Source of the DNA: Selaginella moellendorffii
Taxonomy: Eukaryota > Plantae > Lycopodiophyta
Assembly (NCBI RefSeq): GCF_000143415.4
Contig: NW_003314360.1
Coordinates: 363,572-425,386, forward strand
Reading direction: 5' to 3'
Length of the DNA stretch: 61,815 nucleotides
The position numbers were made by a program, and so were the translations under genes. Position 1 is the stretch's first letter; every line of letters begins with the position of its first letter. Positions 1 through 61,815 of this stretch are shown in pieces. Under the pieces are notes generated by a model. The model searched no databases and was not told the origin of the DNA. It saw only the letters and a program-made list of their open reading frames with translations.

Positions 1-430
1 TTCAAGACACACCCAGTTTGTACTTTCGCCGCCAATTCCGCGGCCCACTCCACCACCCACACGCAGCCCACTTGGCGTCCCGGGAGATTTCAGCACCACT
101 CTCCAACTGTAAGTGGCAGAGTAGCCTTGCTGCTACGATCCGCTGCACACACAGTGCACATTCGCCAGCGAGTCCGGCCTCGATTGTCACGGCCTCCATT
201 CGGCTTCAAATGGTAAGTCTCTTAGACGAAGTAGAAAATGGCATGAGGCCACATGCCATTCAGTAGCAACATTGGCATGCACCGATTGGGCTCTCGAGTG
301 CAGTCCGGTTACAGATGGCGTGTAGCCTCACGCCATCTTAGGATGCAGCCTCAAGACATCTGATGCAGTGGTGAATGGCGTGTGGCCTCACGTTATTTCC
401 AGCTGCTAGCTTTTCATCTGTCAGCTCTAA

Positions 431-3010
431 TTGTTGTGCATTTTTGAACAGGCGAGGAATTGCGTTCTTCTTCCAGCCACTGTCAATGTGGATGCAGAGA
501 AGGGGGAGGAGCTCACCAGTTGGACTTTCGGGATGGAAGGCGAGGATCTGATGCTGTACAACACAGATGGTGGGAGAAAAGAATGCATGGGGATCCTCAT
601 CCAAGTGACAGACACTCCATGCAGTTCCATGCAAGAATATGGACTGGCACTTGTGGTAGAGACAGCGTCCGCCTTCAAGATCCACCTTGCACATCCTAGC
701 GGCTTCCCGGAGGGGGGCAGCGGCTATGAGGAATTCCTAGAGGGAGCTAGGGAGAGGTTGTCCAGGAGGCCCACAATTTCAAAGACGCTGCGGGTCTATG
801 AAGATCACATGGAATCCACGGACCTCACCTACGGCGATGTTCAAAAACTATATTCCAACATTGAGCCGTTGAGAGTGCCTCCAGTTTGCGAAGCGAAGGG
901 GAAGGGGGTCGATCTGGAAACTACCCCGAAGCAGAAAAGGGTGGTCAAGCTCAAGCCGACGTCCGACTCTGCTGCTCCAAAAAAGAAGCTACTCGGTGAT
1001 GCCATTGCCTCGGGTTCGAACACTACACCCACCAAAAAGAAGAGCCGCAAAGAGCAGAAAGAGCAAGAAGAGGCAGCAAAAATCGTCGCAGATAATAGTA
1101 CTTGTTACTATTCCAACAAAGTATATACAATCGACGTGAGCCGTATCGAGATCCAAAGCAAATACAACCATAGGCTAGTATCTGATGAGTGGGTGGAGAA
1201 ACTGAAGCAGAAGATGCTGGCAAGTCCAGTAACACCCGACATCGCAGACGTGATCCCCTACTACCGAACAATGAAGGGCGAGACGAGGTTTCCAGACTTG
1301 ATCAATAGGAAGGTGTTGGACGATCAGAACATCCGGTTCTATGCCGTCTCCGGGCAGCATTCTAGCTTGGCGATGCAACAGATAGTTGTGGATATTATGG
1401 TGGGCGAGGAGGTGAAGAAAGTCTTCAAGACAAGAGTTGTCCGCCTGATAAAAGGCAACTCGCCCCTCCGATCTATCATATACATCTCCCACGCGCAGAA
1501 TGTCAAGCAAGAAACGTGCTACAAATCGGGTCTGCACGAGACATTGGCACGAACACGGAAGCTCTGGGTTCAACTGAAGAAGCCACAAAAACCAGGACAA
1601 GGACGTGCACTAGCAACTAGCGCCTGGCAGGTAAGCCTCGTTGCATGTGGCATAGCATGTGGCCTCACGCCATTTCCATTGCAGGAATTCTCGAGTCTTC
1701 TCTCGAAAACACTGGGGGTCAATGACACACTCAGCATCCATAACATTCTACTCGCGACAAAAGTTGTTTTTGACAAATGGGTAGATGTGCTAAGGAGGTA
1801 CCATGACGGGGAGTTGCTAAACTCAATGGGTGTGGAGGACGGCCGGAAGCCCAATGATTTGAAGCTCAACGCCTTGCGTTTCTCGCGGTCTCTAGACGAC
1901 GACGACCTTCTGACAGTGGCTAATGCTCTTCTACGTGGTGAGGTTGTCTTCAACAAGACCAAAATGACTCCCGGCCATATTGTGACATACGAGGACTTGT
2001 GCACGACTCTGAGAGCTCGTGCGCTATTGAAGGATTGGATCTTCGAGCAAGTGGCCGTGGCGAGGGTGAGCATCGACACCACGCAAGAGATGATGGAAGC
2101 GCTGGAGTTGTCAAATGAAGACATCGACGAGTACGTGAAGGGGGCCCCCAAGTTCATCGATCTGCTGCGGGATGCCACGAAAAGTAAAGCTGAGAAGTTG
2201 GATCAGTATCCAAATTTCATTAAGAGGGATGTCGACCGCCGGCTTCAGAAACAGCTCGACCCCGCAGCAGAGGCCTATCGAGAACCTTACCGGGTATACG
2301 TGAATTCGGATGAGGATCAAAGGTGGAGGAGCATCGTTTCCCGCGGAGATGAGCAGGTCAAGAACATCTTTTGTGTGATGGACTTCACAAACGAGGAGAT
2401 CACTCATGCAGACGAAGTCAGCTCCATCATTGACTTAATGGTGGGACTTGCGGAGGTGGAATCTTCAGTCCACTATATGATCTACGACTCCGAATCCTAT
2501 CACAAGTTCTAGAAGGCCTTGAACGAGGTGAAGGCTCGGTTGAAAGGCAAGGAGATGCGGGAGATCCATGGGATAATGGCTAAGAAGAAGATACCGACGA
2601 ATGTCCGCATCTTCACAGTCGCCCTTGTTATTGGTCCTGCAGCAGAGTGGGACTGGAGTGACTTCCCAGCTTCGTTCAACAAAGCCGATCGAATTGATCT
2701 GAGGGAGGTCAATTTACCCGTGCCTGAGGAACTGAAGACGGCTATGGAGCTTTCGAATCCAAAGAAAGCTCCAGGTGCAGCATGGGAAATGCTCAGCTGG
2801 GTCTTCAACGCAATAGCGGGTGACTCCAAGGGCAAATGCGTTGTCGAGTACAACTGCGGCGGACTATTCTTTCGAGCCGCACTACTCAAGGGTGTCCCGT
2901 GTGTTGCGGTGACAAACTCCATTGAAGAGGTGACTTCAATGGAGCATATAATTACAGTTGCCAAAGAAAAACAGTATCTTCTCTACGAACCTGGTGAGTA
3001 CGCACTTTAA
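431..3010 (+). pseudogene. ParB/Sulfiredoxin-like domain + degenerate N6/N4-methyltransferase fusion (copy 1); multi-exon, probably extending from before 1 to about 4100
   Basis: ParB/Srx-like segment VYTIDVSRI...RLVSDEWVEKLK...FYAVSGQHS. The C-terminal KCVVEYNCGGLFFRAALLKGVPCVAV resembles the motif-I region of beta-class MTases. In-frame GT-AG intron at 1631-1684. ORFs 431-2512 and 2519-3010 share a frame and are separated by one TAG. Pro/Ser-rich upstream exons. Confidence 0.6.
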
Positions 3011-3128
3011 GTTTAAATGTTATCTCACAAGCTCTGTATGCAGGAGCGTGGCCACCCCCAGATGCTGAAACGGCGTTAACAGCTACTGATGTTAGGCCGA
3101 GGTCACAACCTGCACAAGGTAAGGTCAC

Positions 3129-3724
3129 TGTAAGCAACCAAAGGGAACGACTCGAGAGACGATCCATTGGGGTTCAAATATAGAGGGAAAGGGCCCATGA
3201 ACAAGAGTGCACCCCCTTTTCCAATCGGTTAAGGGTCTTGGGATATTTGGGGTTAAGCGTCCTTGGGTTTGAATAGTACTGGGCTGGGTGACCTCCCGGG
3301 AAGTCCAAACTCAGGAGCTTACATTTGGTATCGGAGCGGTCTCGGGTCCGACTCTGTTGGTTGGCTTAGGGGAATCGCACCACATGTTGATTGACATCTG
3401 GCTGGTCCAGTTTGCTCCCACTGGGCTCGACCCGAGGGGTAGGGTGTCAAGAGAGCGAGGCTCTCGGGAGAGCTGCGGCTCTCAGCTTCCGTTCACGAGG
3501 GCGTGAACTTGCAGGGAAGCGTGGTGGATTGTAAGCAACCAAAGGGAACGACTCGAGAGACGATCCATTGGGGTTCAAATATAGAGGGAAAGGGCCCATG
3601 AACAAGAGTGCACCCCCTTTTCCAATCGGTTAAGGGTCTTGGGATATTTGGGGTTAAGCGTCCTTGGGTTTGAATAGTACTGGGCTGGGTGACCTCCCGG
3701 GAAGTCCAAACTCATGAGCTTACA
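3129..3724 (+). mobile_element. Cassandra TRIM (LTRs containing 5S rRNA sequence), intact and young
   Basis: 195-bp LTRs 3129-3323 and 3530-3724 (TG...CA, 1 difference seen). 5S-like core GTTAAGCGTCCTTGGG...TAGTACTGGGCTGGGTGACCTCCCGGGAAGTCC. PBS TGGTATCGGAGC at 3326-3337, purine-rich PPT and 5-bp TSD GTCAC (3124-3128/3725-3729). Confidence 0.95.
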
Positions 3725-4978
3725 GTCACGTGAGGCCTCACGCCATTTTGATTATAGATCGTTGTGAATATTCAGACACGAGGACTGAAAAGCGCACTGG
3801 TGGCGCGTCGAAGAAGGACAAACAGACAAGCAATAGGAAAAAAGGAGGTACAAATTATATTTGCAATGGCGTGTGGTCTCATGCCATTCCTTGCAGGAGA
3901 CACTTCTTCAAAGGCAAAACAGGCAAGCACCAGCCAAGCTCAAACTGACAGTGGTCATAAAAAGCGAAAGCACGTTGGACAGTCGTCGGGATCAGAGGCG
4001 TTTGATTCGAAAAGGAAGAAGGGCAACGAAAAGATGATAGGTAATGCCTCGCGGTTATGGCGTGTGTGCTCATGCCATTACGTGGTACTAGCCGGATCTA
4101 AATCGTNNNNNNNNNNNNNNNNNNNNNNNNNNNNNNNNNNNNNNNNNNNNNNNNNNNNNNNNNNNNNNNNNNNNNNNNNNNNNNNNNNNNNNNNNNNNNN
4201 NNNNNNNNNNNNNNNNNNNNNNNNNNNNNNNNNNNNNNNNNNNNNNNNNNNNNNNNNNNNNNNNNNNNNNNNNNNNNNNNNNNNNNNNNNNNNNNNNNNN
4301 NNNNNNNNNNNNNNNNNNNNNNNNNNNNNNNNNNNNNNNNNNNNNNNNNNNNNNNNNNNNNNNNNNNNNNNNNNNNNNNNNNNNNNNNNNNNNNNNNNNN
4401 NNNNNNNNNNNNNNNNNNNNNNNNNNNNNNNNNNNNNNNNNNNNNNNNNNNNNNNNNNNNNNNNNNNNNNNNNNNNNNNNNNNNNNNNNNNNNNNNNNNN
4501 NNNNNNNNNNNNNNNNNNNNNNNNNNNNNNNNNNNNNNNNNNNNNNNNNNNNNNNNNNNNNNNNNNNNNNNNNNNNNNNNNNNNNNNNNNNNNNNNNNNN
4601 NNNNNNNNNNNNNNNNNNNNNNNNNNNNNNNNNNNNNNNNNNNNNNNNNNNNNNNNNNNNNNNNNNNNNNNNNNNNNNNNNNNNNNNNNNNNNNNNNNNN
4701 NNNNNNNNNNNNNNNNNNNNNNNNNNNNNNNNNNNNNNNNNNNNNNNNNNNNNNNNNNNNNNNNNNNNNNNNNNNNNNNNNNNNNNNNNNNNNNNNNNNN
4801 NNNNNNNNNNNNNNNNNNNNNNNNNNNNNNNNNNNNNNNNNNNNNCGGTCTTGGAGCCCGGTACGGAGGCTTGTGCCCTAGGAAAAATGGCATGTGCCTC
4901 AATGCAGTTGAATTTTGTTATATTTATATACTATATAAAGGTTTGGAAACCTTATTTTACAAGTGGGATAATGACAAT

Positions 4979-5000
4979 TCCCACTTTAACGAAATAGAGC
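4979..5000 (-). repeat. Right terminal inverted repeat of the Sola-like element
   Basis: 21/22 match to the reverse complement of 44706-44727; abuts the point where the MULE reading frame is cut off. Confidence 0.7.
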
Positions 5001-5002
5001 TT

Positions 5003-7182
5003 ATATCAAATCTGATAGACATGCTTCATATAGACTCATCTTCCCTTTCTCTGCCTCAGAGGAACGCCAGGTCCAATGTTTACTCTCTGAGAGATTCACA
5101 GTTGGGGTGTATGCAAGATCCTCAAGTGGTTGATCCTTATAAAAAGATGATATTAAAAAGCAATAAAAAGAGAGGAAAAAAAGAAAAACCAACCTGAAAA
5201 GAGTGATGTCCCCATTGGAACATTCTAACTTCCCACCACCCCAACCACGACTCAAGTTGTGGTAGACAACTTACGTCAGTATGGCCATCTTCACGCCACC
5301 ACATTCGGATCTCGTTTGCTTTTGCCTCATGCTCTTCTTCAGAAGGTGCAGCCTGCCATTGTTTGCACAACTCCTTAAATGCTAATTGGAAATCTAGCTT
5401 GATAAGGTGGCAGTGTTGGTTTAGGCTCTGAGCCCAATGGAACTCACATGTCCTCTCACGACCTTCTAGGGGTAGACCATTCGCAAAGACTGCCCGGACA
5501 CCATTCCAATTAGCCCCAGCCCCATTTGCCATAAAACTGCGAAAGTTGGCAGTCTTACTAGTCCGCTTCAATACAATGTCGGAGAGGGACTTCCAAAATA
5601 TTTTTTGAGCCATTTGGTTTTGTACTTTAAACTCTGCCATTGCAATTGTCAAGTTACAACGTAGCCTATGAAAAGTGCAATGTTTAAAACCATTTTAAGA
5701 TAATGAGAAAAAAAACTACCTTGGATCATACACATGAGCTCCCATGGTTGTCCAACCTGCCACCCACTCCATATGGTCAAAATGTACCCATGCATTAGCA
5801 AGGTCACTCAACCCAAACATATCCATTCGAGAAACAAGATCCACACCAGAGGCAGGGCCCATAGTAGACATTTTGAAAACGAAGGGGCACTCTTGCTCAC
5901 TAACGACTTGATCTGGAAATAAACTCCCATGGATAAACTCATAAGGACAAGTCCATTTTAGTTCAAGGATTGAGTCGATTTTTGATTGGAGTTTCCCCTC
6001 TCGAGATTCACACATCCAAGACTTTATCCTAAATAAAACAAAATGTAAGAGAGATATTATTGAAAAGTATGTAATAATATTTTCATACCTTCTAAGGCTA
6101 GTTGCAGGTTGCACATGTCGTAGTAACTCCCGCAAGCTAGCCTCATCCAGTTGAGTATTCTTGTAGTCTGGATCAAGTAAAGTATTTGCGATAAAATCCT
6201 TGAGCACTGTCTTTTGAACATGCTTCGGAGTTGCAAATGAGTTTCTCACAGTCTCTATCTGCACTGCATCTTTGAAATGGTTGACTGAACTCCTTTGTAT
6301 CCCTTCCTGCATTGGATGTGTGTGCGTGCCAATATGTACTGTAGCTCTACCAACCTTTCCATCTCGTGGAAGAAAATAATACATCTTGGCCCCGCAGATG
6401 GCACGACACAATGGAGCATTCTTGCAAAACCGACACTTGAATCCAACANNNNNNNNNNNNNNNNNNNNNNNNNNNNNNNNNNNNNNNNNNNNNNNNNNNN
6501 NNNNNNNNNNNNNNNNNNNNNNNNNNNNNNNNNNNNNNNNNNNNNNNNNNNNNNNNNNNNNNNNNNNNNNNNNNNNNNNNNNNNNNNNNNNNNNNNNNNN
6601 NNNNNNNNNNNNNNNNNNNNNNNNNNNNNNNNNNNNNNNNNNNNNNNNNNNNNNNNNNGAGCTAACAAGAGGTGGTAGTTCAAAAAATATATTGCCATTG
6701 TATGTAGATGGGAGCTCATTAACAGGCCTATGCAGAAAGGAATGAACATTGATAGAGAGGCGGGAAAACTGGAAAGCGTTGCAAACAGCTTGGAATATCA
6801 GTGAAGTTGGAGTTTGGAAATTCTTGGCTTGCACTGGACTAACATCTCCACTAGAACTAGAAGAGGAAGAAATGATGACAACCGACTCTTACTTCACATT
6901 TACTTTAGCAGGATCACAGCCTCGCACTTTGATTGGAGATCCAAAAACTCGAATCTCTTTCGACTTGGAATGTTGCAAATCCCAATGTTGTCCACCTTCA
7001 CCTACACCCGAAAGAAGAAACTCCGATCGTTCAACTACACCAATGTTGTTGCGAATCACAGCTTCCAATGAAATAGAACCGAGAGAAAGATTGAAACATC
7101 GACAAAGAAAACTTTCTGAAATAAGACTCTGGGAGATAGAAAGCGGTGGGTGATCTTGGTAATGCAAAAGGAAGCCCTCCAT
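5003..7182 (-). pseudogene. Mutator-like (MULE) DDE transposase, multi-exon, truncated by the Sola-like insertion
   Basis: N-terminal CRFC...C...HIGTHTH zinc finger; WVHFDH (D1 region); FMANGAGANW (D2 region, D->N); CEFH CxxH motif; PTVNLSESKH (E motif); short GT-AG introns (e.g. about 5670-5718 and 5139-5194); one N gap. Confidence 0.75.
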
Positions 7183-7989
7183 TTTATTGCCTTTAGGTTT
7201 TGGAACTCTAAACTTTTATAACGAAATGTCACCTCACATGTGCTATGCCATTATGTGAAAAGATAGGGCGATTTTATTCTAGGATCTAACATCGAATAAT
7301 GTTGTTATAATAAATTCAGTATGAAGTATATAGGACTATGTTGTACAATATTAAAAGTCTATATATATTGAATTCAAAAACATACTCAAATTTATTATAT
7401 GCACTAACTTTTGGTAGAACGGAAAGAAATATCACCTCAAGCATATGCCATAATATGAAAGATAGGAATGATTTTATTCTAGGATCTACCATCAACCAAT
7501 TGTTGCCAAATAAATTAAAAAATGTACATATTTTCAGTACTTCATTAAAGCTAGAAATCATCACATTCTTCTGAACTCATTTAAATATATTCCATCTTTG
7601 TACTACCATCTATCACCTATAGTAAATTATCTATATACATTGCTTTGGAAATAACACCTTACGATTTAATAATCTTATATTTTCTAACAATTTCGTACTG
7701 TGATCAATTCAACACATGCGTCTGTGACATTATTTCACATTATGACATAGTCATATTAGAGCACACCTCCATTATTAAATTACAATTCAAAAGGACTTTG
7801 TCACGTAATCAAATCTAGGGTGGAATAGAAATTGTACAGTGCTAGATTTATTATTTATTGTACAGTGAAGATTTACTGCATCCATGATGAACGGCTGTGA
7901 TGAAAGTTAGGTTAGGGTTAGGGCAACTGCCGGCGTTAGGGTTTTACAGAAAGTATCGCAGGAGATTGGGAGTGACTGCGGGAACAGAA

Positions 7990-8513
7990 TGCCGCCAAGA
8001 GTAAGTTTTTTCTCCTCCTCCACTCCCTCTCCTCCACTCCCTCTCCTCCCCGCCCAGCGCCGCCACGCCCAGCGCCCCCGCGCCCACGCCATGCCTAGCG
8101 CCGCCACGCCGTGCACACCACGCCATGCTCAGCACCACCACTGCCCAGGGCTGCCGAGCGCTGCCCACTGCCATGCCACGCCCAGCGCAGCACTGCCTGC
8201 CCAGCACCGCCACTGCCATGCCGCCACTGCCGTGCCGCCGCTGCCCAGCATCGCCCATGCCACGCCACGCCACGCCAGCGCCGCACTGCCTAGGGCCACT
8301 ACTGCCCAGCATCGCCGCTGCCAAGTGCCCAGGCCGGGCATTTGGCTGGGTACTCCGCCTGGGCCGGCCAAGTCCACGCAGGCCAGCCAAGGCGCTTGGC
8401 TGGCAAAGGCGCCAAGTGCTTGTGCCAAATGCCCACGCTGGGCATTTGGCGCGAGCCAGCTAAGTCCAAGTGCCCAGGCCAAGGGTCCCCGGGCACTTGG
8501 CGCGCACCAGCCT
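7990..8513. repeat. GC-rich low-complexity tract with a cluster of hairpins, between the divergent MULE and ParB-MTase genes
   Basis: GCCAAATGCCC-acgct-GGGCATTTGGC, GCCAAGTGCCC-aggcc-GGGCATTTGGC, GCCAGCCAAG-gcg-CTTGGCTGGC and CCAAGTGCCC...GGGCACTTGG; GCCAC/GCCCAGC repeats upstream. Confidence 0.7.
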
Positions 8514-8721
8514 NNNNNNNNNNNNNNNNNNNNNNNNNNNNNNNNNNNNNNNNNNNNNNNNNNNNNNNNNNNNNNNNNNNNNNNNNNNNNNNNNNNNNNN
8601 NNNNNNNNNNNNNNNNNNGGGTGGCCCAATTCACCGGCGAACCGGCGCCTATACCGAGCCCACACCCTATTCCCCTCTTCTTATGCATTTATAATTTATA
8701 ATGAGTTTTTTTTATTTTCAG

Positions 8722-11700
8722 AAATGGAAGGAACTACAAAAGGAGAGGGATGTTGGATCAAAGAGAAGACATGAGGAAGATGAGATCCAAGATGACAATC
8801 AAGTTGACCTTCAGATAGAGATTTCCACAGCGACAACTCTACCGTCTTCCCAACCACATAGATCCAGTCCATATGCACCCCCACCACCGCCATCGATGCC
8901 ACCACCACCATTACCACCGCTACCACCGCCACCACCATTACCACCACCACCACCTTTACCTTCATCACCACCATTACCACCACCGTCATCACCACCATTA
9001 CCACCACCGTCATCACCACCATTACCACCACCACCGCCACCATCATCACCACCACCAGCACAACCATTGTCATCACTACCATTGCTGCCACAACCACAAA
9101 TGCCACTACTCTTAACATATTCACAAAATATGGCAGAAATGGAGCAGTGCCCAAGTGCGCCTGATGGCGGTGTTGGGCCCGAGTCAGGGGCTAAATCTGA
9201 TAATGGTGCTACTGGAGGTGTAGCTGAAGCTGAAAGAGAAGTGGAGCTACCTGAACACATTGTCGACAAGCGCTTCCAAGAGACAGTTTTGAGAACTAAA
9301 GAGAAGGCCATTCACATGACTCTAGAGTCTCTCAAGTGGGAAGGCCCGGGGCACATGATCTGAGAAATCCCACTATGTCGATTCACTTAGACAAGCATCG
9401 TTCGGTCTGCTTCACCACACTTCGTCAACATGGACATCTATAGTCTGTACAAACAGAATGGCCTTGGGACAAACATAGGTATGTTCCTTGTTTCGGTTTT
9501 CAAGCCAGGAACGACAAATACCCTCTCGGTGTCACCGGAAATCGAGAGGGATTGGGATGACATTTGGAAAATGAAGTCCCGCGAATTTGACAACAAGCTT
9601 ATAAGCCATCCTGAGACTCAACAATTTATGGGGAAAATGTTCTACATTATCGACGGGAATCATCGCTGGTGCGTGTGGATGAAGTGCATCCGAGAATGCT
9701 TCCGAGACGATCTTGTCTATCACATCAATGTTCCGGTTGGACATGTACACGCGAGAGGATCTCTAGATGTGGCAAGGCTTGTGATAGCTTGCCACAAAAT
9801 TAATGTGTAAGTACCTCTCCTTCTTCAATCACTTTTAACAATTTGTGTTTTGCAGACTGGGACAGTTTGCAGTGCAGAAACAAAGCCTAGTACATGATAT
9901 CAAGCAGATCTGGTTTCTTGCCAATCTCGACGAGGATGTAGTCCGCAGCCACTATGGTGATGATTTAGCATCACTTATTCGACATCAACGAGGTCGTCAG
10001 GATGCCAATAGATGGTACAAGAATCCAGTGGCTTTTATGACAGCTGTGTGGAGTAAGGTATGTTCTTTTAAGTATACTTCTTATCATAGAATGTTTGTGT
10101 TGTTTTCAGCCATTGGTGAAGGTTAAGCAAGATGCATATGCACAGTCGCATCGAGCTGAAAATGATCAAGAACTCTCAGAGCATTTAGTTGCAATTGACA
10201 AGAAAATCAACAGCACAAAGAAGACAAAGGTAAAGAAATTACTTAGTGTGGTTGACCCTCGACACCCAAAGGAGTGGTTCGATATTATAACAGAGATTGC
10301 TTGTCATGAAAGTAAGTATTGTTTGTATTTACATGAAGGTTCTCACAAAAGTTATTTTTTAGTGGGCAAGACTCCAGATGAGATTATTTACAACATCTCA
10401 AAGTCAAAGCTTACATATGAGGAACAGATACACATTCTGAACAACCTCAATAGCAGACTTAGGGAAGGAGAAAAAGGTTTGGATAGTATGATGGAGACTG
10501 TGATGAGGAGGACTGTCTACATTTCACAAACTGTATATGAAGGGGAGATGTTTCTAGCGCCTTTCATAGGGGATGATCCTGAACAACTTCCATTTAAGGA
10601 CTTCGTCACCATTGAGTTTACAAAACTTGGAGAGGACTACCTGCCAAAGAAGGCCACAAGCATGACTCTATTTGATAAACAACTTGGCCAACCTTACTTC
10701 ATGCGTCAAGCAGCTTTCAGGTAACATACAATTTCTCAACTATACTCAATTGTTTATATTCTATTATAGGTATCTCCAATATAGAGGCGTTCCTCTCGAA
10801 ACACCAGTATGCACACGCCTCATGAGGCATGGTGTGAGAGATGGAGGCATGTACCTGACAACAATGAAGTTTCCAGCAGCAATAAAGCGCACTTGTCCTT
10901 GGGAATTGGAGATGTCAGATTATGAACCAACCCACCATGAGGCTGCAAGAGGCAACAATGATGACGAAGATGATGGCCATGAGAATGTCGACCCTGTTGG
11001 TGCCAATGGCGAGCAGAGTGAAGATGGCGGTGAGAACGAGATTCTTCGAGACGAAGTCGAGCAAGAGAACTAGAACGTCCAAGAAGTTCTACCTCGACGA
11101 AAGCGAGCAAATCCACATCTGGAGGAATTAGTCAACAGTGATGATGATCGTCCAAGATGTCCCCGTAACCAAGGAACTTCTCGAGGTATATTTCATTTTA
11201 TTCTCTCCTTTTCTTAGTTCCTCAAAATGGTTGCAGCAAAAACTGTCGGGAGTAACTTCATTCCAGCTTGTCTTGATGCTCGAGAAGAGGACTTGGAGGA
11301 ACTTACATCTACCACACGCCACATGACGGTATGTAAATTTTTCTTAAGTTCACATCTTATCTTTGTCTTCTCCCCCTAGATTCACCCTGTATCTCCAGTG
11401 GCATTCCGTGGTGAAGTTGGGATCTTTATTGGCTCCTATAGTTCATTGATGGCATCTTTTGAGGAGGATGCTGAGAATATGGCTATCCGGCAAAAGTGGG
11501 AGCGCTTTTGTCAGAAGATCCATAGGCGACCGCTCAAGAGCACAAACTTCATGCTCTTTGACATGCCAGATGGTTTTCCAGACGCTAATGGTGATGTCCC
11601 AAACTGGAACAACCTGACTAAAGACCACTTGAAGGATGCATTCCTTTTGGTAGCAATTCTCCTTCACACAACCGGTCAAGTTGCCTTCATTCTCCTAAAT

Positions 11701-15617: not shown

Positions 15618-15619
15618 GC

Positions 15620-38861: not shown

Positions 38862-38876
38862 CTTGTCCTTCTCTTG

Positions 38877-50520: not shown

Positions 50521-52151
50521 CACAGCTCACAACGCCGCTTACACAAGCAGCGCTCATTGCGCTCAGCGGAACCAAGAACACGGCGCACAAAAATGATAGA
50601 CCTAGGAATGAGTTCAAGAATTCAAAAATAACACACGCTTGAACGTCACATCAAATCCTCTGACAAACCAGATCTTATGATTCCTCTGACAAATTTCAAA
50701 CTGAGTAGCTTCTAGACTTTGCTGTCGGAGGTTGAACTTTGTCACATCATGTCCTTGCCTCGATCCAGCTGTGCCATGTCAGTGATTCGAACTTTGCCAT
50801 GCCATGTCAGCGATCCGCGCCAAGATTATTCGCCGTGTAAAGGAATAATTATGCTGTGTGTGTACGTCCATTTATGGCAATATAAGGCCACACGCCATTC
50901 AAAGAATAATGCTAGTCGAGCATTTTTTGGTGCATTTTTGGGTTCAAACTTGCATGAGCCCACACGCTATAAAGTTTACCTGTACCAAAAATAGAAACAG
51001 CTTTATTTACTTGGGAATTTAAGTGGTTGAGGCATTTTTAAACTTACAAACACATGCCCTACTTACGTTCCTTTGGTTGCTTAAAATTCAAAAATATTAT
51101 AAACCTTTCTTTTTGCATTTTCAATGTTTTCAATTATGGTTTTTGATTTTCGCAAGACCAGCCTAGTAATTAGCAATTCAGTAGCTTGATAAACATGCAA
51201 ATACAGAACTTGATGCAAAATCCTTTGATATGTTAGGACCATAAACACATTTCAATAGAGAGGGTCCTTTCATTTCATAACTCCTTACGTAGATCTTGGT
51301 GAAACCAGAGTTAGTGAAGTTGGTTTCAACATTGCTAAACATTGTAAGGCTCGTGTAGTCTCATGTGGTGTCCGATCGAGATGCTTCTTTGCAGGGTCAT
51401 TAAGAAGGACATTGTATACCATTCTTTATTTAGCTGAACATCTGGCATTTTTGGAAATACAAGATGCTTTGGAATATCCAATCATAAATGGTATAAATAT
51501 AGCGAGGGTATTAAATGATATCCCAATCCTGATCTTTCTTTTGGATTTCGCGTGCATGCAGTCCGAGGAATGATGACATTGCGGATTTCTTTTGGATTTC
51601 ACGTGCATGCATGCACGCGGCGATCCAGAAATTAATGGTGGCGCCCAAGTCCGACGAATGATGACGTTGCGGGATTACCAAACGTCGTGACATTTCACGC
51701 GTGTGAGGTTAGGTTTTGCATTTTGCTTCGTACTCGTGCTTGCACACTCGCGCTTGCATCGCGCTCCCACTCGCGATCACGCTCACATTCGCGCTCATCT
51801 ACCTTCTCTACAGGTTTCTCGTGTGCATCGGCGTCCACTTGAGCTTGCATCACACTCGCGCTCGCATCGCGCTCGTGTGCATTGGCGTCCACTTCAAGAC
51901 ACACCCAGTTTGTAACTTCGCCGCCAACTCCGCCGCCCACTCCGCCACCCACACACAGCCCACTTGGCATCCCGGGAGATTTCAGCGCCACTCTCCAACT
52001 GTAAGTGGCAGAGTAGCCTTGCTGCTACGATCCGCTGCACACACAATGCACATTCGCCAGCGAGTCCGGCCTCGATTGTCACGCCTCCATTTGGCTTCAA
52101 ATGGTAAGTCTTTTAGGCCAAGTAGAAAATGGCATGAGGCCACATGCCATT

Positions 52152-52183
52152 CAGCCAAGGGAACGGACTTGGAAGAATCAGCC

Positions 52184-52219
<36 letters not shown>

Positions 52220-52224
52220 ACTTT
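52152..52224 (+). rRNA. 28S (25S/26S) rRNA fragment, 5' half (orphon, non-functional)
   Basis: CAGCCAAGGGAACGGACTTGGAAGAATCAGCCGGGAAAGAAGACCCTGTTGAGCTTGACTCTAGTCCGACTTT matches the conserved eukaryotic LSU core with few substitutions. Confidence 0.92.
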
Positions 52225-53881
52225 GTCAATGGGGGCTTTTCATATTTATCCTCTTGAAAAACCATAGAGGTCTAGTTTCGACATGCTCGAAACTGGCAAA
52301 GAGCATATGGGGGGGTTGAGAAGAGGGGAGGATCCCTAGAACTAGAGTGCGGTTCGGTTCTGTGCAGATCAGATCAAGGAACTAGTGTCCGGTTCTGTGC
52401 TGCCCAAAGCCATGCCACTCACTCCGCAAACGCGTGCTCCCTATCCGTACTGGTGGTGAACTTCGCGCCTTATCCATGGTCCTCAGCCTCATCTCTCCCA
52501 TGTGGTTGCATCTACAGATGTGAAGGACTTGAGTCAATCGTGAGATCAGTGAAGGTACACCGCCCTTGCTTGATCTCCATCTGTATGACGCCTACAGTTT
52601 TCCAGAGATATAAGAAGCCCCTGGAGATGTACTGTCCTGGATCCCACAGTGCGGTGAACTGAGGAGGAGTGTGCCGTCTCCGGTAATGGTGATGCTGCTG
52701 CTGCCTGGGAGTCCTCTCCTCGCTGCTGTGTGACTGATCCCCTCCAACTGGGATTGCTGTTTCCAGCCTCCCATCAGGCCGTGCAAGTGTAGTGCCGCCA
52801 CGCCAGTCCCACGGCCTCATACCAGTGTAGCCGTACCCTTGGCACTATCCATCTGGAATCACAACCAAAGGCGAGCCGCTCCTTTCGGATCCGGGTTGAA
52901 GCTACGTTTCCGTACTCCAACAAGCTAGCCTGATGCAGCTTCTGACACGAGCCGTGCCCCTCGAAACATCCCATACATCAAATGGCGTTGCTCCGAGTGC
53001 CTTGATCATGGTGGATCCACAACCAAGGCAAGAAAGGGATCAGCCAACACAGCTGTACCGTACAAATTGGGACTTCAGTGTGCCGTCGAAAGTTGTTCCT
53101 TTGCCGATTGGGACTAGGTGTACAATCGGAGGGTAGGGAAGTGCTGCCACGTAGTTTGAAGGACCCGGTGCGTGTCGGAGAATAGTGTCCTTTGCATATT
53201 CAAACGAGCAGCCGTAACGGCGCCAAGCGAGTTGTCCCCTCCTTAGGTGGAGCTTGGCTCTCCGGACCCCAAAACTCCGAACCCCAAGTGAATGAGGAAG
53301 GAAGGACGCTGCCGATGAGGTTCTGTGCAGCTAGTGTCCTTGGAAGAAGTTCCAGCAACCGTGGACTCCAAAGCCCCCAACTTGAACCATGTTCCGAAAT
53401 TTGAACGTTTGGATCTTGCTCGTGAACCGTTGGATTGCCACGAAGTTTTGCTGGCGTGTGCTCCTTCGGAGGATCTATCTTCCCACCGTTGCGATCAGTG
53501 AAAAGGTACGTGGTTCAGCCGCCGCCGCAATCCCCAGGTCGTCCATAACCCTAGCCGCCACCAGAGATAGGGTCGCCTTGATCTCCTGATTCCTGGCTCC
53601 AAATCGCCTGTTCTTGGACTCAGAATGATCGTGGGGATGTGCTCTCTCCAGCCGTGAAAAAGAATCGTGGGAAATCCATGTGGAGAGCTCGCAGTGACTA
53701 AAAGAGTACTCTTGACGCTTTCTCGCTCATGGAACATGCAAATCCAGTGAAACCAAGGCACGGCTTGCTCTCAGCATCGTCCTTATTGCTCTCCTAGTCC
53801 TACTCCTACTCTGGATCAAGCACGAAAGTCGACTCTCAAGGCACTCCTCTTCTCGCTAAACTTAGGGTTTTTTTTCTCTCT
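52225..53881 (-). mobile_element. Unit A: non-autonomous retroelement family 1 (apparently full length, about 1.66 kb)
   Basis: Bounded by CTAGTCCGACTTT; its 3' end resembles the LINE 3' end incl. the GTTTCG-ACATGCT-CGAAAC stem-loop; no RT ORF; telo-box at the 5' end. Confidence 0.75.
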
Positions 53882-53910
53882 CTAGTCCGACTTTTCACTA
53901 GTCCGACTTT

Positions 53911-55994
53911 TTTTGTTAAACGGGGCTTTTATTCACCAGAAAACCAAAACTGGGCTGAGTTTCGTTAAGGCACGAAACCAGCAAAGAGCCGCGACAGAAA
54001 GTTTCGTCGTGCACGAAACCAACAAAGAGCAATAGGGGGGGTCTTCACGTGGAGGTACTTTGTAGAAAAACTCGCCGCAGACTTTTATCTCAAGCCATGG
54101 TCTTGAGTAGAGCCAGCAGAAAGATGATGGGAGAAGCTCCAAGTACCAAGGAACCAGCCTTTACGACTTGAGAGTAGAGTTACTGAAGAACTTGTCTCTC
54201 TTGATCCCTTAAGGAGAGACTCCAGGTGCCAAGGGGTCAGTGCTGAGAGGGGAGTTGCTCACAAGCTTGACGGCTCATGCTGTCGCGATTGTGGAATCCA
54301 GAACCCTGTCCAGTGGCGTCCACAATCACTCGTGAGTACTTGCCTCTCTTGATCCCCTCAGAGGGCATGCCTTACATCGTCTTTGTGCCTCGTCGAGTCT
54401 CTGAACTGAAGTGTATCTGACCATAAGTATTTCTTGAAACCTTGGAGGTACCCCATGGACGTACACTGCTCTCCCTTGGTTTCTTCTTGTGCACTTTCAT
54501 ATCTGCCCCCCGCTGTAAGCTGCTGATGATCGGACCCTACTGAGACTCAGTACCAATCTTGTCGCTCGTCGGTGTCGAGTGCTCTTGTTGGTGCCTTTGC
54601 TCTGGTCCATGTCTTTATCTTGAGTGTCTTCATAGCTAGGGCCAAAGAACTCATTCATTGTGACCACACTAAACACCCTCAATTGTCGTAGAGAAGCTGG
54701 ATGTTTGCCCAAGTGTTGGTGACGAAATCCTCCTCACGTGGGGAGCCTTGTTTCCAAACCTCCACCATTGTCGACCTTGAAGAAACCCACAAAGAGAACC
54801 ACCTCCTTGATAAGTCATCAAGATCGACAAACTTGAAGCAAGGTCGCGTACGACACCATCACTTCAAGCTCCCAATCCTTGGCAAGAATCACCTTACAAG
54901 TCTTGGGGATGAAGAGGATCTCCTTCACCTTGCTTGAGCTCACCACTGTCCATGGAGCAGGCCTCCAGACCCCCAGAAAGAAAACCGTGGAGTAACGAAG
55001 GACAAGTCTAAGCAGCAAGCCGAGGACTCAAATACTTAGATCTCCTTCCTCCACCGTTTGATCTTCCTGAAAATCTGAAGGCCGACTCTCCATATTCAGC
55101 TCCAACTTCTCACCGACGTGATCTCGAAACGAGTGCATTAGCCAGGAGAACCAGCCGCTCGAACTTACACTGGACTTCACTTGTTTGAACCATGAAACTT
55201 GAGCTGACAGATCTTGCAGCCCAGCCGTTAGATCTTCGTGAAACTTTGTAGGCGCAATCTCCCTAGCGTCTTCTAGCTTCTCACCAGAGCGATTTTTGGT
55301 CCGATGTCGCCTAAAGCAGCCACAGCTGACCCATTCTCGCCTCAAACCTTAGCCGCCCAAGTGCCTAGGGTCACTTGTATCTTCCCAGATCTTTATCCAA
55401 ACGGCCTGCATCTAGTGACAGAGTGTCTTTGCCTTGTAGAACCCCAGCCGTGGAGAAGAAAAGAGAAGCCCAGCCGGTGATGAGTGCCAGACGCTCAAAC
55501 TTCCACTGGCCCACACTTGCTTGAACCGTGAACTTCGAGCAGACGGATCTCGCAACCCAGCCGTTAGATCTTCTTGAAATCTTGTAGTTGCAGTCTCCCT
55601 GGTGTCTTCTAGCTTCTCACCAGAGCGATCTCAGATCAGATGGCGCATATAGCAGTCGCAGCCGACCCTTGCTCACCCCGAACCCTAGCCGCCGACATGA
55701 CTAGGGCCACTTCGATCTTCTCGGATTTCAATCCAAACGGCCTGCAGATAGCGACAGAGTGTTGCCTTGCATTGTAGGAGCCCAGCCGTGGATAGAACAG
55801 AGAAGACCAGCCAGTGATGAGAGCAAAACAAAAGATTTTTCGATGAAGTGCCCAATATTGCTTGTGCCTTCGATTCTTGAGGGGGCGCCTTGATTCAGCA
55901 GCTCACAGGACTTCTACACTACCTCCTCTACACTAGATCTGGCCACGGAAGTCGACTCTCAATGCGCCATCTCCTCCTCTCCGTCTAGGGTTTT
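53911..55994 (-). mobile_element. Unit B: non-autonomous retroelement family 2 (about 2.08 kb)
   Basis: Bounded by the same TSD; two GTTTCG-N7/8-CGAAAC..CAAAGAGC stem-loops at the 3' end; 5' motif AAGTCGACTCTCAA...TAGGGTTTT shared with unit A. Confidence 0.7.
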
Positions 55995-56030
55995 CTAGTC
56001 CGACTTTTCTAGTCCCACTAGTCCGACTTT

Positions 56031-56518
56031 TTGTCAATGGGGTTTTATTTAGTTTAGCCTCTATAAACCATAGAGTCCGATTTCGACATGCTCGAAACCG
56101 GGAAAGAGCTCTTCAAGATTTTTAGGGGGGGTGGGACGAGGGGGACGAAGTAGAACTGGTACTCGAGCCCGTGATGTCTGAGCTCCAAGCTTTCGAAGTT
56201 CCTGATGTGGAACTCTGTCGACTCGGGGAGGTACACGTGCTTTCGTTCCTGAACATGTGCTGCCAAATCCATATTGGTGGCTTCCACGTCCATTCTTCTT
56301 CTCCAGCCTCGCTTCTTCCTCTAAAAAACAGCCACAGCTTCTTCTCCTTCGCTATCTTCCCTTCCTCGCCTCGTTTGATCAGCGTGTCCAGGCGGGCCGC
56401 GAGTGAGACGATCAGTCTGGACCAAACCTTTGAGATAGTTGCTCGAGCCGAGGGGTCCGTGTCCTCGAACAGCCTGGCGCAGCGAGCCTTCCATATCTCT
56501 GCTAGTGTGCATCCCCGA
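56031..56518 (-). mobile_element. Unit C: 5'-truncated LINE 3' end (488 bp)
   Basis: Near-identical to 57543-58029; bounded by the TSD. Confidence 0.9.
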
Positions 56519-56531
56519 CTAGTCCGACTTT

Positions 56532-57529
56532 TTGTCAATGGGGGCTTTTCATATTTATCCTCTTGAAAAACCATAGAGGTCCAGTTTCGACATGCTCGAA
56601 ACTGGCAAAGAGCATATGGGGGGGTTGAGAAGAGGGGAGGATCCCTAGAACTAGAGTGCAGTTCGGTTCTGTGCAGATCAGATCAAGGAACTAGTGTCCG
56701 GTTCTGTGCTGCCCAAAGCCATGCCACTCACTCCGCAAACGCGTGCTCCCTATCCGTACTGGTGGTGAACTTCGCGCCTTATCCATGGTCCCCAGCCTCA
56801 TCTCTCCCATGTGGTTGCATCTACAAATGTGAAGGACTTGAGTCGATCGTGAGATCAGTGAAGGTACACCGCCCTTGCTTGATCTCCATCTGTATGACGC
56901 CTACAGTTTTCCAGAGATATAAGAAGCCCCTGGAGATGTACTGTCCTAGATCCCACAGTGCGGTGAACTGAGGAGGAGTGTGCCGTCTCCGGTAATGGTG
57001 ATGCTGCTGCTGCCTGGGAGTCCTCTCCTCACTGCTGTGTGACTGATCCCCTCCAACTGGGATTGCTGTTTCCAGCCTCCCATCAGGCCGTGCAAGTGTA
57101 GTGCCGCCACGCCAGTCCCACGGCCTCATACCAGTGTAGCCGTACCCTTGGTGCTATCCATCTGGAATCACAACCAAAGGCGAGCCGCTCCTTTCGGATC
57201 CGGGTTGAAGCTACGTTTCCGTACTCCAACAAGCTAGCCTGATGCAGCTTCTGACACGAGCCGTGCCCCTCGAAACATCCCATACATCAAATGGCGTTGC
57301 TCCGAGTGCCTTGATCATGGTGGATCCACAACCAAGGCAAGAAAGGGATCAGCCAACACAGCTGTACCGTACAAATTGGGACTTCAGTGTGCCGTCGAAA
57401 GTTGTTCCTTTGCCGATTGGGACTAGGTGTACAATCGGAGGGTAGGGAAGTGCTGCCACGTAGTTTGAAGGACCCGGTGCGTGTCGGAGAATAGTGTCCT
57501 TTGCATATTCAAACGAGCAGCCGTAACGA
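56532..57529 (-). mobile_element. Unit D: 5'-truncated copy of family 1 (about 1 kb)
   Basis: Near-identical to 52225-53219; bounded by the TSD. Confidence 0.9.
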
Positions 57530-57542
57530 CTAGTCCGACTTT

Positions 57543-59956
57543 TTGTCAATGGGGTTTTATTTAGTTTAGCCTCTATAAACCATAGAGTCCGATTTCGACA
57601 TGCTCGAAACCGGGAAAGAGCTCTTCAAGATTTTTAGGGGGGGTGGGACGAGGGGGACGAAGTAGAACTGGTACTCGAGCCCGTGATGTCTGAGCTCCAA
57701 GCTTTCGAAGTTCCTGATGTGGAACTCTGTCGACTCGGGGAGGTACACGTGCTTTCGTTCCTGAACATGTGCTGCCAAATCCATATTGGTGGCTTCCACG
57801 TCCATTCTTCTTCTCCAGCCTCGCTTCTTCCTCTAAAAAACGGCCACAGCTTCTTCTCCTTCGCTATCTTCCCTTCCTCGCCTCGTTTGATCAGCGTGTC
57901 CAGGCGGGCCGCGAGTGAGACGATCAGTCTGGACCAAACCTTTGAGATAGTTGCTCGAGCCGAGGGGTCCGTGTCCTCGAACAGCCTGGCGCAGCGAGCC
58001 TTCCATATCTCTGCTAGTGTGCATCCCCGAAGCGCATCAAAGAGCTCCTGGTGGAGGTGCGTAATGTGTGTCCGAGTTTGGTTGAGTTGATCAAAGTGTG
58101 GGGCCTCATTGTGTCTCCACTTCCATGCATCAGGATTCTTTGTTTTTCCTTGGATGAAGCTACCCCAGAGTGCTGATTCGTATGTGATTGCAGCTCCTCC
58201 GGTTGACGTTTGTTTGAGCACCGCTGCTGCACCTTCCCATACTTCCTGTGCTGCCGGACATTCCCATAAGATGTGTCGCTGTGTTTCTGTGGCGCCACAG
58301 GTCTTGCAGGCTGTGTTCGGAAGATGTATGGCAACCAGGGAGGGAAGACGTTCTTGTTGGGCCAGCCACATGAAGTAGCGGTTCTTAGCTGACCAGCGCC
58401 CTTTCCAGATCTTGTTGATGCAGTGTGAGTGGTTCCTGGAACGGATCTGTTGGGCCTTTGCTTTCCGGATGAGGGAGGATCGAGTTGGCACCCTGATCAG
58501 CTTGCGGCCCAGCTTGGTCTCGTACTGGAAGAAGTCCTTGCACGTGGTTCCCCTCCAATGCCACTCTGCAGGATCCCACTTGAGTTCGTCCAGGGTTTGT
58601 TGGCGGAACCAGTAGAGGCGGGCATATTGGTTTTTTGGGATCAGTGGATCAACGTTGGCAGTTTTTTTCTCCATTTGAATCACTCTGATCGGTTTGGCCC
58701 TGCTCATGTCGGGGAGGTCCTCGTACTCGGGGGTAACGATGGGGTACAAGCGTCCAGCCTGTCCTGCCTTGAAGACTAGTCCCGATGCCATGTTGGGGAG
58801 GGTGCATACGATCGATTCGTCCAGCTTCCACCAACGATGGTGTTGATCCTCTTGCAGGTTTAGTCGTTCAAGGCATGCGTGTTTGGCTGCTAAAAAGGCT
58901 GTCTGGAATTTACGCATCCTGTGTTCTGAGATGGTTAATCCGTAGAAAGTACTGATGCGGTCGCGATTGTGGGCCGTCTGGTTGGGCTGGATCATGGTGT
59001 CTGCCTCTGCGAAGGTTCTCATCCCTGCTCGGTGCAGGTCTCTACATGTCTGGTCCAGGCCGCGATCCTCTGAAGCTCCGAGCGTTTTACCGTTGACCGC
59101 GAAGAGTTTGCTTAGGAAAATTGGCTGCCGGTCCAGTTGTTCTTTGGTACGAGGTGGTTTACGTTCCAGCTTGCACTTGAATTGCCTCCAGAGCTTGAAC
59201 AGCTTTCCTGAGAACGTGTGAGCCTTTGTCATTTTGAGTTTGGTGTCTGAGAAGAGCCATTGTTCGTCTGGCGCCCAGTTTTGTCTGGTGTGCTCGTTCC
59301 TGTCCGGGAGGACTTTCAAAAATTGTGCTCGCAGCAGTATTCTCCATGGTTGGTGGCCAGGCATGAGCATCCTTGTGAAAATTTTGAAGAGAAGAGCCTT
59401 GCATTGTTCTTCGATGTCAATAATATTGAGGCCACCTTCGTGCTTTGGAAGTGTTACTGACCGCCAGTTGACCTTTGCTCCACCACGCGACACGCAGGAG
59501 GAGCCTTTCCAGACATAGGTTCGAATGAGTTGGTTCATTTCCTGGATCGTTCGCCTGTCCATGTTCCAGCATGCTGCCAGGAACCAGATCGCTCCAAGTA
59601 GGATGCTGTTAGCCACCACGCAGCGTGCTGAGAACGATAGTTTTCTGCTCGCCCAGAACTTGAGTTGATCCCTTAGTTTTGTTACTGCTTTTTGGTTCTG
59701 GGGTTCTGGATCATACTGGCGTCCCACTTGGAATCCAAGGTAGCGGGTGGTCTCTTCCGTGTCCAGCCATTTGAAGCCCAGCTCCGTGCCCCATGTTGGA
59801 GGTCTGCCGGGGGGGAGCCATAGTCCTACCGATTTGTGCCAGTTTGTTTTCGATCCCATGGCCTCATTGAAAAAGTCCAGGTCCCTTTTGACGCTTGAGA
59901 GGTTCTCCGGTGATCCCTCCACGATCAGGCTTGTGTCGTCTGCAAAGGCTGAGGAA
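57543..59956 (-). mobile_element. Unit E: 5'-truncated L1/Tx1-type LINE, ORF2 C-terminal part (RT from FADD, zf-RVT)
   Basis: AFADDT, NWHKS, RYLGF, LSFSARCVVANS, KVNWRSVTLPKHEGGLNI, CKTCGATETQRHILWEC and IWKARC..LF; frame open to 57634. Confidence 0.92.
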
Positions 59957-60029
59957 CTAGTCCGACTTTTTGAAATGACTTGAGAGGTGTAGAATAAGTG
60001 GGAGCTTCGGCGCAAGTGAAATACCACTA
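59957..60029 (+). rRNA. 28S rRNA fragment, 3' half
   Basis: CTAGTCCGACTTTTTGAAATGACTTGAGAGGTGTAGAATAAGTGGGAGCTTCGGCGCAAGTGAAATACCACTA directly continues the 52152-52224 LSU sequence. Confidence 0.92.
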
Positions 60030-61815
60030 ATGGTAAGTCTTTTAGGCCAAGTAGAAAATGGCATGAGGCCACATGCCATTCAGTAGCAACATTGGCATGC
60101 ACCGATTGGGCTCTCGAGTGCAGTCCAGTTACAGATGGCGTGTCTGTCACTTGGATCCAGCAACTGTCAATGTGGATGCAGAGAAGGGGGAGGAGCTCAC
60201 CAGTTGGACTATCGGGATGGAAGGCGAGGATCTGAGGCTGTACAACACAGATGGTGGGAGAAAAGAATGCATGGGGATCCTCATCCAAGTGACAGACACT
60301 CCATGCAGTTCCATGCAAGAATATGGACTGGCACTTGTGGTAGAGACAGCGTTCGCCTTCAAGATCCACCTTGCACATCCTAGCGGCTTCCCGGAGGGGG
60401 GCAGCGGCTATGAGGAATTCCTAGAGGGAGCTAGGGAGAGGTTGTCTAGGAAGCCCACAATTTCAAAGACGCTGCGGGTCTATGAAGATCACATGGAATC
60501 CACGGACCTCACCTACGGCGATGTTCAAAAACTATATTCCAACATTGAGCCGTTGAGAGTGCCTCCAGTTCGCGAAACGAAGGGGAAGGGGGTCGATCTG
60601 GAAACTACCCCGAAGCAGAAAAGGGTGGTCAAGCTCAAGCCGACGTCCGACTCTCCTACTCCAAAAAAGAAGCTACTCGGTGATGCCATTGCCTCGGGTT
60701 CGAACATTACACCCACCAAAAAGAAGAGCCGCAAAGAGCAGAAAGAGCAAGAAGAGGCAGCAAAAATCGTCGCAGATAATAGTACTTGTTACTATTCCAA
60801 CAAAGTATATACAATCGACGTGAGCCGTATCGACATCTAAAGCAAATACAACCACAGGCTAGTATCTGATGAGTGGGTGGAGAAATTGAAGCAGAAGATG
60901 CTGGCAAGTCCAGTAACACCCAACATCGCAGACGTGATCCCCTACTACCGAACAATGAAGGGCGAGACGAGGTTTCCAGACTTGATCAATAGGAAGGTGT
61001 TGGACGATCAGAAAATCCGGTTCTATGCCGTCTCCGGGCAACATTCTAGCTTGGCGATGCAAGAGATAGTTGTGGATATTATGGTGGGCGAGGAGGTGAA
61101 GAAAGTCTTCAAGACAAGAGTTGTCCGCCTGATAAAAGGCAACTCGCCCCTCCGATCTATCATATACATCTCCCACGCGCAGAATGTCAAGCAAGAAACA
61201 TGCTACAAATCGGGTCTGCACGAGACATTGGCACGAACACGGAAGCTCTGGGTTCAACTGAAGAAGCCACAAAAACTAGGACAAGGACGTGCACTAGCAA
61301 CTAGCGCCTGGCAGGTAAGCCTCGTTGCATGTGGCATAGCATGTGGCCTCACGCCATTTCCATTGCAGGAATTCTCGAGTCTTCTCTCGAAAACACTGGG
61401 GGTCAATGACACACTCAGCATCCATAACATTCTACTCGCGACAAAAGTTGTTTTTGACAAATGGGTAGATGTGTTAAGGAGGTACCATGACGGGGAGTTG
61501 TTAAACTCAATGGGTGTGGAGGACGGCTGGAAGCCCAATGATTTGAAGCTCAACACCTTGCGTTTCTCGCGGTCTCTAGACGACGACGGCCTTCTGACAG
61601 TGGCTAATGCTCTTCTACGTGGTGAGGTAGTCTTCAACAAGACCAAAATGACTCCCGGCCATATTGTGACATACGAGGACTTGTGCATGACTCTGAGAGC
61701 TCGTGCGCTATTGAAGGATTGGATCTTCGAGCAAGTGGGCGTGGAGAGGGTGAGCATCGACACCACGCAAGAGATGATGGAAGAGCTTGGATTTGTCAAA
61801 CTGAAGACATCGACG

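Follow-up and report, generated by a model that had tools for sequence, protein, structure and literature searches.

A near-palindromic motif of 22 bp was detected in the 61,815-nt stretch of Selaginella moellendorffii contig NW_003314360.1 analysed here (the window, to which the restriction of the motif described below refers). The motif is real, and all 25 of its sites fell inside two partial copies of one DNA transposon; a restriction to element DNA had been proposed in an earlier annotation made from the letters of this DNA (the sequence-only reading). The composite element, assembled from the two copies, was about 11.6 kb long and contained a Sola1-type transposase gene and a divergent accessory gene with a predicted ParB-like domain. 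Based on the sequence and on structural models, we consider it moderately probable that the 22-bp motif is the family-specific site of this ParB-like protein, which would mark the element as self and protect or prime it.

Sites were counted at up to three mismatches (strict) and up to six mismatches (loose) to the 22-bp pattern. The strict count gave 19 matches in the window and 0 in each of 100 shuffles. The loose count gave 25 sites, comprising all 23 positions of the sequence-only reading (3730 being in register at 3725, and 50874 at 50877) and two additions, 45848 and 50949. The site at 50118 was confirmed as a perfect palindrome. In leave-one-out scoring with a position matrix, 20 sites reached 10.7-36.3 bits. 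The motif-free interval that had been reported between about 5003 and 44700 was also recovered, and the top score in 5001-44700 (39,385 non-N bases) was 6.1 bits; the insertion at 52155-60028 lacked the motif as well, with a top score of 6.2 bits. Some sites were copies of others: 52129 and 61336 are the counterparts in copy 2 of 238 and 1652, 60058 duplicates 52129 within a 55-bp duplication, and 49948 and 50118 form the two arms of one 192-bp hairpin. After four duplicates were dropped (52129, 60058, 61336, 49948), 21 independent sites were retained. No exact match to the motif was found in the prokaryotic genomes and viral contigs searched.

The information of the aligned sites was confined to the 22 bp: each of the 11 half-site positions carried 0.4-1.8 bits, and positions beyond the adjacent base, which has a weak flanking A/T preference, carried 0.18 bits at most. 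The outer arms were conserved, and T7 was present in 41/41 half-sites and C5 in 38/41. The flanks of different sites were unrelated (median 18/60 identical), and the arms did not covary, positions 6/17 pairing in 8/20 sites and 9/14 in 4/20. Central positions were mostly mismatched, the centre was polar and variable (AA or TT in 14/17, p=0.013), and the central GGCC was intact in 10/21 sites. From the confinement of the information to 22 bp, the unrelated flanks, the lack of covariation and the polar, variable centre, we infer that the 11+11 structure represents two half-sites for a dimeric DNA-binding protein. This anatomy fits a dimeric protein site and speaks against a methylase target, a hairpin or an introner. 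Flanks were shared with another site in only 5/21 sites, which evidently arose via local duplication, and the motifs were not arranged as tandem repeats; 44930, 46088 and 46234 sit in three diverged copies of one unit of about 80 bp. An origin of the sites by insertion with target duplication was not supported: direct repeats of 5 nt flanked 2-3/20 sites, and their excess was not robust (p 0.04-0.6 depending on search-window size and null).

The transposase gene lies on the minus strand at 46256-49135 and matched DUF7869 (PF25273, E=8e-43), a family which we take to be Sola1; by this match the element is filed as a Sola1-type DNA transposon. The gene carries a premature stop near 47950, its 5' end is lost in an N gap (49136-49931), and its last small exon is placed near 46256-46290. 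The motifs HDKMD, QxDN and GHTHEDxD were conserved, and 42 homologues were collected, the plant-type relatives being 35-40% identical. In one near-identical copy (P0004), a single open frame spans both the stop and the site-bearing loop described below. Three diverged copies, one of them inverted, of the putative last exon with its adjacent site were present at 44870-44960, 46080-46175 and 46226-46320. The two partial copies of the element matched each other at 1-263 and 51893-52154 (95% identical) and at 472-2129 and 60156-61815 (98% identical), and the element contains two N gaps of 739 and 796 bp. Copy 2 comprises the upstream region of the accessory gene with site 52129 (51893-52154, plus strand) and, after a 7.9-kb insertion, the resumed accessory gene with sites 60058 and 61336 (60029-61815, plus strand; 1.66 kb of it aligning with copy 1 at 98% identity), in which the counterpart of 324-471 is missing.

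The left terminal inverted repeat (TIR) of 21 bp was found in copy 2 (44706-44726, plus strand), and 20/21 of its bases equal the reverse complement of the right TIR in copy 1 (4980-5000, minus strand). The left boundary agreed with the end, at 44700, of the homology of a flanking decayed Ty3 copy, and a 15-bp core of the TIR was also found downstream of the transposase in the related loci L001 and L003. By eye, the 21-bp TIR resembles the Sola1_NA TIR in Table 1 of PMC3845634. The target duplication of Sola1 is 4 bp long and AWWT-biased (PMC3845634); the two ends belong to different copies, and the left flank AAAT fits AWWT, whereas the right flank TTAT does not.

The sites were spread over the whole composite element at distances of at most 1.5 kb, save for one 2.3-kb gap containing 796 N, and they avoided coding DNA. 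Only 2/22 sites in the composite element were coding, compared with 56% of its DNA (5,626/10,050 bases; p=6e-6, a value resting on our own gene models). Three sites (238, 315, 375) lie in the 5' region of the accessory gene (238-396, plus strand), and a degenerate one (4887-4908) about 100 bp from the right end. Seven sites (44930, 45239, 45328, 45848, 45928, 46088, 46234) were located downstream of the transposase (44930-46255), and five (49948, 50118, 50216, 50877, 50949) between the two divergent genes (49948-50970). The sequence-only reading had placed the sites in introns and untranslated regions (UTRs), and 20/22 were indeed non-coding, some of them in spacers; sites 47575 and 47632 (47575-47653) lie in the transposase frame, in a variable loop before the LQxDN motif, and P0004 also keeps this frame open. 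The length of the loop varies greatly among plant-type relatives, and neither of the two aligned animal proteins has it. The suggestion of the sequence-only reading that the element was loaded with sites while its proteins were spared is supported by this distribution.

The accessory gene of copy 1 (452-4106, plus strand) is divergent from the transposase; its start codon is uncertain, and a premature stop is present at 2510-2512, where one sequencing run (X6) has a different base at 2511. Its predicted product consists of a ParB/Srx-fold domain (encoded at about 1070-1520), a helical region, a beta-class methyltransferase fold (about 2270-2990) and a Lys-rich tail. The ParB/Srx-fold model reached a predicted local distance difference test (pLDDT) of 75.6. 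In Foldseek, this model matched best the structure of site-bound Noc (7ol9, E=3.9e-5) and next ParB, and VIA returned PadC (Z 9.7, root-mean-square deviation (rmsd) 2.9, 100 aligned) and KorB (Z 9.2). At the level of sequence, the ParB domain had no Pfam match, the word-based protein search returned no relatives, the PDB sequence search gave nothing significant, and no relatives were found in the prokaryotic-genome and viral-contig collections. Language-model features from Atlas (1070-2509) placed the region near the fungal DUF3723 (0.96), a lead only, with recognition below threshold. DUF3723 is an accessory gene family of Starship elements; the proximity hints that it may be ParB-like, and no literature linking DUF3723 with ParB was found.

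The C-terminal part was predicted to adopt the fold of beta-class amino-methyltransferases (CcrM, Z 12.6, rmsd 4.4, 195 aligned; PvuII, Z 11.0) in a low-confidence model with a mean pLDDT of 51.6. Active enzymes of this class carry the catalytic motif D/S-P-P-Y and the motif FxGxG, which binds S-adenosylmethionine (SAM). Here the catalytic loop reads DFTN, and in relatives DLRR, DATT or DSAN; the place of the SAM motif reads EYNCGG and is equally altered in the aligned relatives. Judged by these motifs, the methyltransferase part is degenerate both here and in the relatives. The accessory protein had 17 phmmer matches, from which P0044, P0047 and P0057 were excluded as repeat artefacts. Relatives with a named source came from Selaginella, Calypogeia and Riccia, which, together with introns of about 50 nt, pointed to a seed-free plant as the probable host. 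One homologue in Selaginella moellendorffii (P0060/P0061; XP_024528744.1, XP_024536758.1) is annotated without the ParB domain, with only the helical and pseudo-methyltransferase parts retained; it is possibly a domesticated gene.

Several sites of the accessory gene lie in predicted introns of about 50 nt. The sequence-only reading had assigned one motif copy to each of many short introns, which is supported for 1631-1684 by homology, for 3119-3757 and 3848-3896 by the reading frame, and most weakly for 4041-4091; the three proposed in the 5' region, 213-266 and 298-341 among them, found no support. The intron at 1631-1684 (plus strand, 54 nt, phase 0, site 1652) corresponds to an 18-residue gap in the BLASTP alignment to the RefSeq protein XP_024528744.1, which opens exactly at the predicted splice sites. 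Additionally, 8/9 homologues called as plain open reading frames (ORFs) show [WF]-x-V here and terminate shortly afterwards, whereas spliced models run on. The gap and the early ends of these read-through peptides suggest that the intron is old, seemingly common to distant relatives, and that the site entered it later. The other predicted introns, all on the plus strand, are 2994-3043 (50 nt, motif-free), 3119-3757 (site 3725), 3848-3896 (49 nt, site 3866; the end is 3896, not 3897) and 4041-4091 (51 nt, site 4057; in frame and with the weakest support). The frame stays open after removal of all four; keeping any of the first three brings stops, and keeping 4041-4091 does not. The intron at 3119-3757 is interrupted by a terminal-repeat retrotransposon in miniature (TRIM, 3129-3724) that bears 5S rRNA, long terminal repeats (LTRs) of 195 bp and a GTCAC duplication.

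The introns were also looked for in eight sequencing runs compared over 1-3128, five of them presumed to be RNA. No spliced junction was observed in this interval, and contigs of the five presumed-RNA runs pass 298-341 and 371-402 unspliced, so confirmation by RNA-seq was not obtained. The runs X3-X5 share a single truncated copy with many C>T and G>A changes and thus have little bearing on an active copy, X12 has 2-3 reads over 211-630, and contig X1 extends 25 bases past the 1631 donor. The three 5' sites (238, 315, 375), for which an intronic position is unsupported, may simply lie in the untranslated leader.

In the reading favoured here, a dimer of the ParB-like protein would read the two unequal half-sites, and the protein would recognise and coat its own element. 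Coated in this way, the element would likely escape silencing or be primed for transposition, in the manner of VANC on VANDAL elements. The sites may have spread partly through local duplication and may have been kept where tolerated, that is, in old introns of about 50 nt, in UTRs and in one protein loop; the methyltransferase part would be a pseudo-enzyme that serves as a scaffold or reader. A bolder version, in which a land-plant ParB/parS-like system uses a ParB clamp joined to an inactive methyltransferase, which loads at sites no more than about 1.5 kb apart, those in introns and the transposase loop included, spreads and shields the element, and in which each Sola1 family has evolved its own site, is possible and is put forward only tentatively.

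A number of observations weigh against a ParB-like protein as the reader of the site. Both element copies in the window are damaged. The CTP/nucleotide-binding motif GxxR of ParB proteins carries a conserved Arg, which was absent in 12/12 sequences (GQHS in 11, GQHT in 1). Where ParB proteins have a helix-turn-helix after the ParB domain, a helical region was predicted but no helix-turn-helix emerged; in the low-confidence model that includes the methyltransferase part (mean pLDDT 51.6), that domain took up the VIA list. No motif family surrounds the other ParB/methyltransferase-like gene of the window (8722-12241). In the related loci, 80 of which were compared, most on short contigs, no ParB-like gene was found, including L001 and L059, by profile, Atlas, hhalign and Pfam searches of 76/119 long ORFs from 33/80 loci. 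In addition, 2/8 control blocks of the window gave palindrome families of at least four members from other repeats, and a compact related element of 3.9 kb (L006) has palindromes inside its long TIRs, as transposase sites would be.

The motif of the window was absent from all 80 related loci (best score 10.3 bits). Palindrome families of at least four were found in 21/80 loci, many of them tandem repeats or near the shuffle level (5 shuffles each); given the families in the control blocks, a count of this kind means little by itself, and only L001 and L059 were used as examples. In L001 a different palindrome occurs 9 times, chiefly upstream of the transposase, while L059 carries one unit 18 times over 11 kb, amid flanks at background level; the shuffle maximum was 2 in each. 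The latter locus (L059:1-11400) is a multi-gene DUF7869 element in which the 18 units, of the CCTGGAGTC type, are evenly spread in coding and non-coding DNA. Its ORF at 6811-8058 shows C5-methyltransferase-like motifs by eye and has no Pfam match.

The main and serious rival is that the transposase itself binds the sites, as extended subterminal sites for end pairing or self-activation. It is agreeable to this rival, which we regard as less likely than the favoured reading, that the first 1.6 kb from the left end hold seven sites, that L006 has room for little besides a transposase, and that the AtMu1 transposase, in the accessible part of its description, activates its own copies sequence-specifically. 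The sites nevertheless run through the interior and the accessory-gene introns, only one is within 800 bp of the right end, and the 21-bp TIRs lack the motif. The transposase stays a serious rival because the arrays of the relatives are not tied to a ParB-like gene and because of the TIR palindromes of L006.

A role of the motif in RNA, as a hairpin, a splicing signal with the CTCAY half as branch point, or a source of small RNA, is improbable. Folding was better than in shuffled sequence for three of the four introns with the motif (z -1.9 to -2.7), but not for intron 1631-1684 (z 0.45), any palindrome folds, and no compensatory change was seen between arms that are mostly mismatched at the centre. 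The adenine of CTCAY is found 16-20 nt from the 3' end in each of the four 3' motif introns, a position suited to a branch point; a branch-point-like candidate occurs at -17 in the motif-free intron and at a like position in 5/7 plausible introns of the second gene (8722-12241). This is a hint only, and branch-point use could be a side role, but CTCAY is a loose and common 5-mer, most sites are outside introns, and site orientation versus strand was not significant (p=0.10).

Binding by a host transcription factor, for which the element would hoard sites for its own expression, is still less probable. CACGTG, the G-box, occurs in some halves (3725, 47575), yet no copy of the motif was found in 39 kb of other DNA, the relatives use unrelated motifs, and plant factor sites are usually far shorter than this site of 22 bp and about 30 bits. 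The sequence-only reading had also raised introner-like intron gain seeded by the palindrome, which as a mobile unit would have made the introns. In 6/8 proposed or supported introns the site is 5-13 nt before the 3' end, and the few flanking direct repeats noted above would suit this origin, but those repeats are not in robust excess, the flanks are unrelated, the introns are not alike along their length, one is motif-free and most sites are outside introns. Intron 1631-1684 seems to be present in distant relatives too, and their read-through peptides do not include a translated motif; for this intron such an origin is largely refuted, and we regard it as remote in general. Finally, the idea that the core GGCC is the target of the element's methyltransferase gains something from the predicted fold, but with the core intact in fewer than half of the sites while the outer arms are conserved, and with a catalytic motif missing from that fold, it can practically be dismissed.

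Other features of the window touch the element or resemble it. The insertion in copy 2 (52155-60028), bounded by the 55-bp duplication, contains a large-subunit ribosomal DNA (rDNA) piece (Rfam match 59957-60181, below the gathering score) split by several pieces of non-LTR retroelements; one 12-base rDNA word recurs 8 times at the borders of these pieces and a zf-RVT domain was found, which suggests an rDNA-site-specific L1-type family. Just upstream of the accessory gene, a 40-bp stretch (106-145, identical to 51998-52037) matches very abundant RNA reads running into other sequence and is presumably the 3' part of 25S/28S rRNA. Two TRIM elements with 5S-rRNA-like LTRs (3129-3724 and 32169-32768, 83% alike), which we take to be of the Cassandra type, were present, and one had landed at the edge of a motif site. 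The 192-bp hairpin (49948-50139, 92% perfect), bounded by two motif copies, lies upstream of the transposase beside the N gap and might give rise to small RNA or be an artefact of the assembly. Another decayed element (5137-12241) is similarly laid out, with a transposase-like gene (5137-6888, minus strand) and a divergent gene (8722-12241) with the motifs DGNHR and DCTAGSGS and a weak N6_N4_Mtase match (E=2e-4), which keeps the ParB arginine. The latter had been suggested as a paralogue for comparing intron positions and proved too distant for this, being not detectably related by profile.

If the ParB-like protein does read the site, self-recognition of the VANC type would be extended to a fold of bacterial origin in land plants. 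The idea is directly testable, since a sharply defined and information-rich candidate site of 22 bp comes with its candidate protein, and the pair could yield a compact, orthogonal tool for chromatin targeting. The element also shows a putative binding site fitted into introns of about 50 nt and a protein loop. Large transposons of eukaryotes repeatedly carry ParB-like accessory genes, for which an action on the element's own DNA has been proposed, and no tested site was found in the accessible parts of that literature.

Bacterial ParB marks DNA through palindromic parS sites. Like ParB/parS, Noc/NBS and KorB (7ol9, 6sdk, 8qa8), the Selaginella system combines a predicted ParB/Srx fold with numerous palindromes in the DNA that it would mark; unlike them, it lacks the Arg of the nucleotide motif, has no ParA ATPase partner seen among the 15 ORFs scanned, in an element with two N gaps, and belongs to a eukaryotic, spliced gene. 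In plants, VANC proteins bind family-specific motifs in Arabidopsis VANDAL elements (PMC5735166, PMC10398659), and TnpA of Spm shows comparable self-recognition (10.64898/2026.08.24.746577), as far as the accessible parts of these sources go. As in those systems, a family-specific motif is gathered in introns, spacers and ends and differs between families. However, VANC and TnpA serve Mutator or CACTA elements through motifs of 8-10 bp in tandem repeats or dense clusters, with binding and demethylation shown, whereas the Selaginella element has a mostly dispersed 22-bp dyad and a ParB-fold candidate known from sequence and model alone. By analogy, the element would work like VANC or parS in design; it is not a VANC/VANDAL member, and it departs from one defining ParB motif.

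Closer precedents come from algae. ParB proteins bind inverted repeats, and PAG3 of Bostrychia is a ParB-like accessory gene of a giant Plavaka transposon, with adjoining arrays of inverted repeats proposed as its sites in the accessible part of that report (10.1101/2025.02.11.637652). PAG3 belongs to an EnSpm/Plavaka element, has an oxygenase partner domain and lies beside tandem arrays, whereas the Selaginella element has single sites over its whole length, in introns and a coding loop. Sola1-1_Ec32 of the brown alga Ectocarpus (21.5 kb, 282-bp TIRs) carries an opposite-strand accessory gene that joins ParB-like and N4/N6 methyltransferase domains and is proposed to bind and modify its own DNA (PMC12477816); in the accessible part of that account no binding motif was found and the string 'palindrom' has 0 occurrences. 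Both are large Sola1 elements with an opposite-strand ParB and methyltransferase gene, and the present one differs in its land-plant host, its length of about 11.6 kb, its 21-bp TIRs, its degenerate methyltransferase and its defined 22-bp candidate site. Our literature search found no land-plant case of Sola1 with a ParB-methyltransferase gene and no dispersed intronic site, and the accessible parts of PMC4738411 and PMC5751038 held nothing on sites. Given the algal precedents of Ectocarpus Sola1-1 and Bostrychia PAG3, and as far as these partly accessible sources go, what appears new here is a land-plant Sola1 element with a ParB-like gene and a dispersed, intronic 22-bp site.

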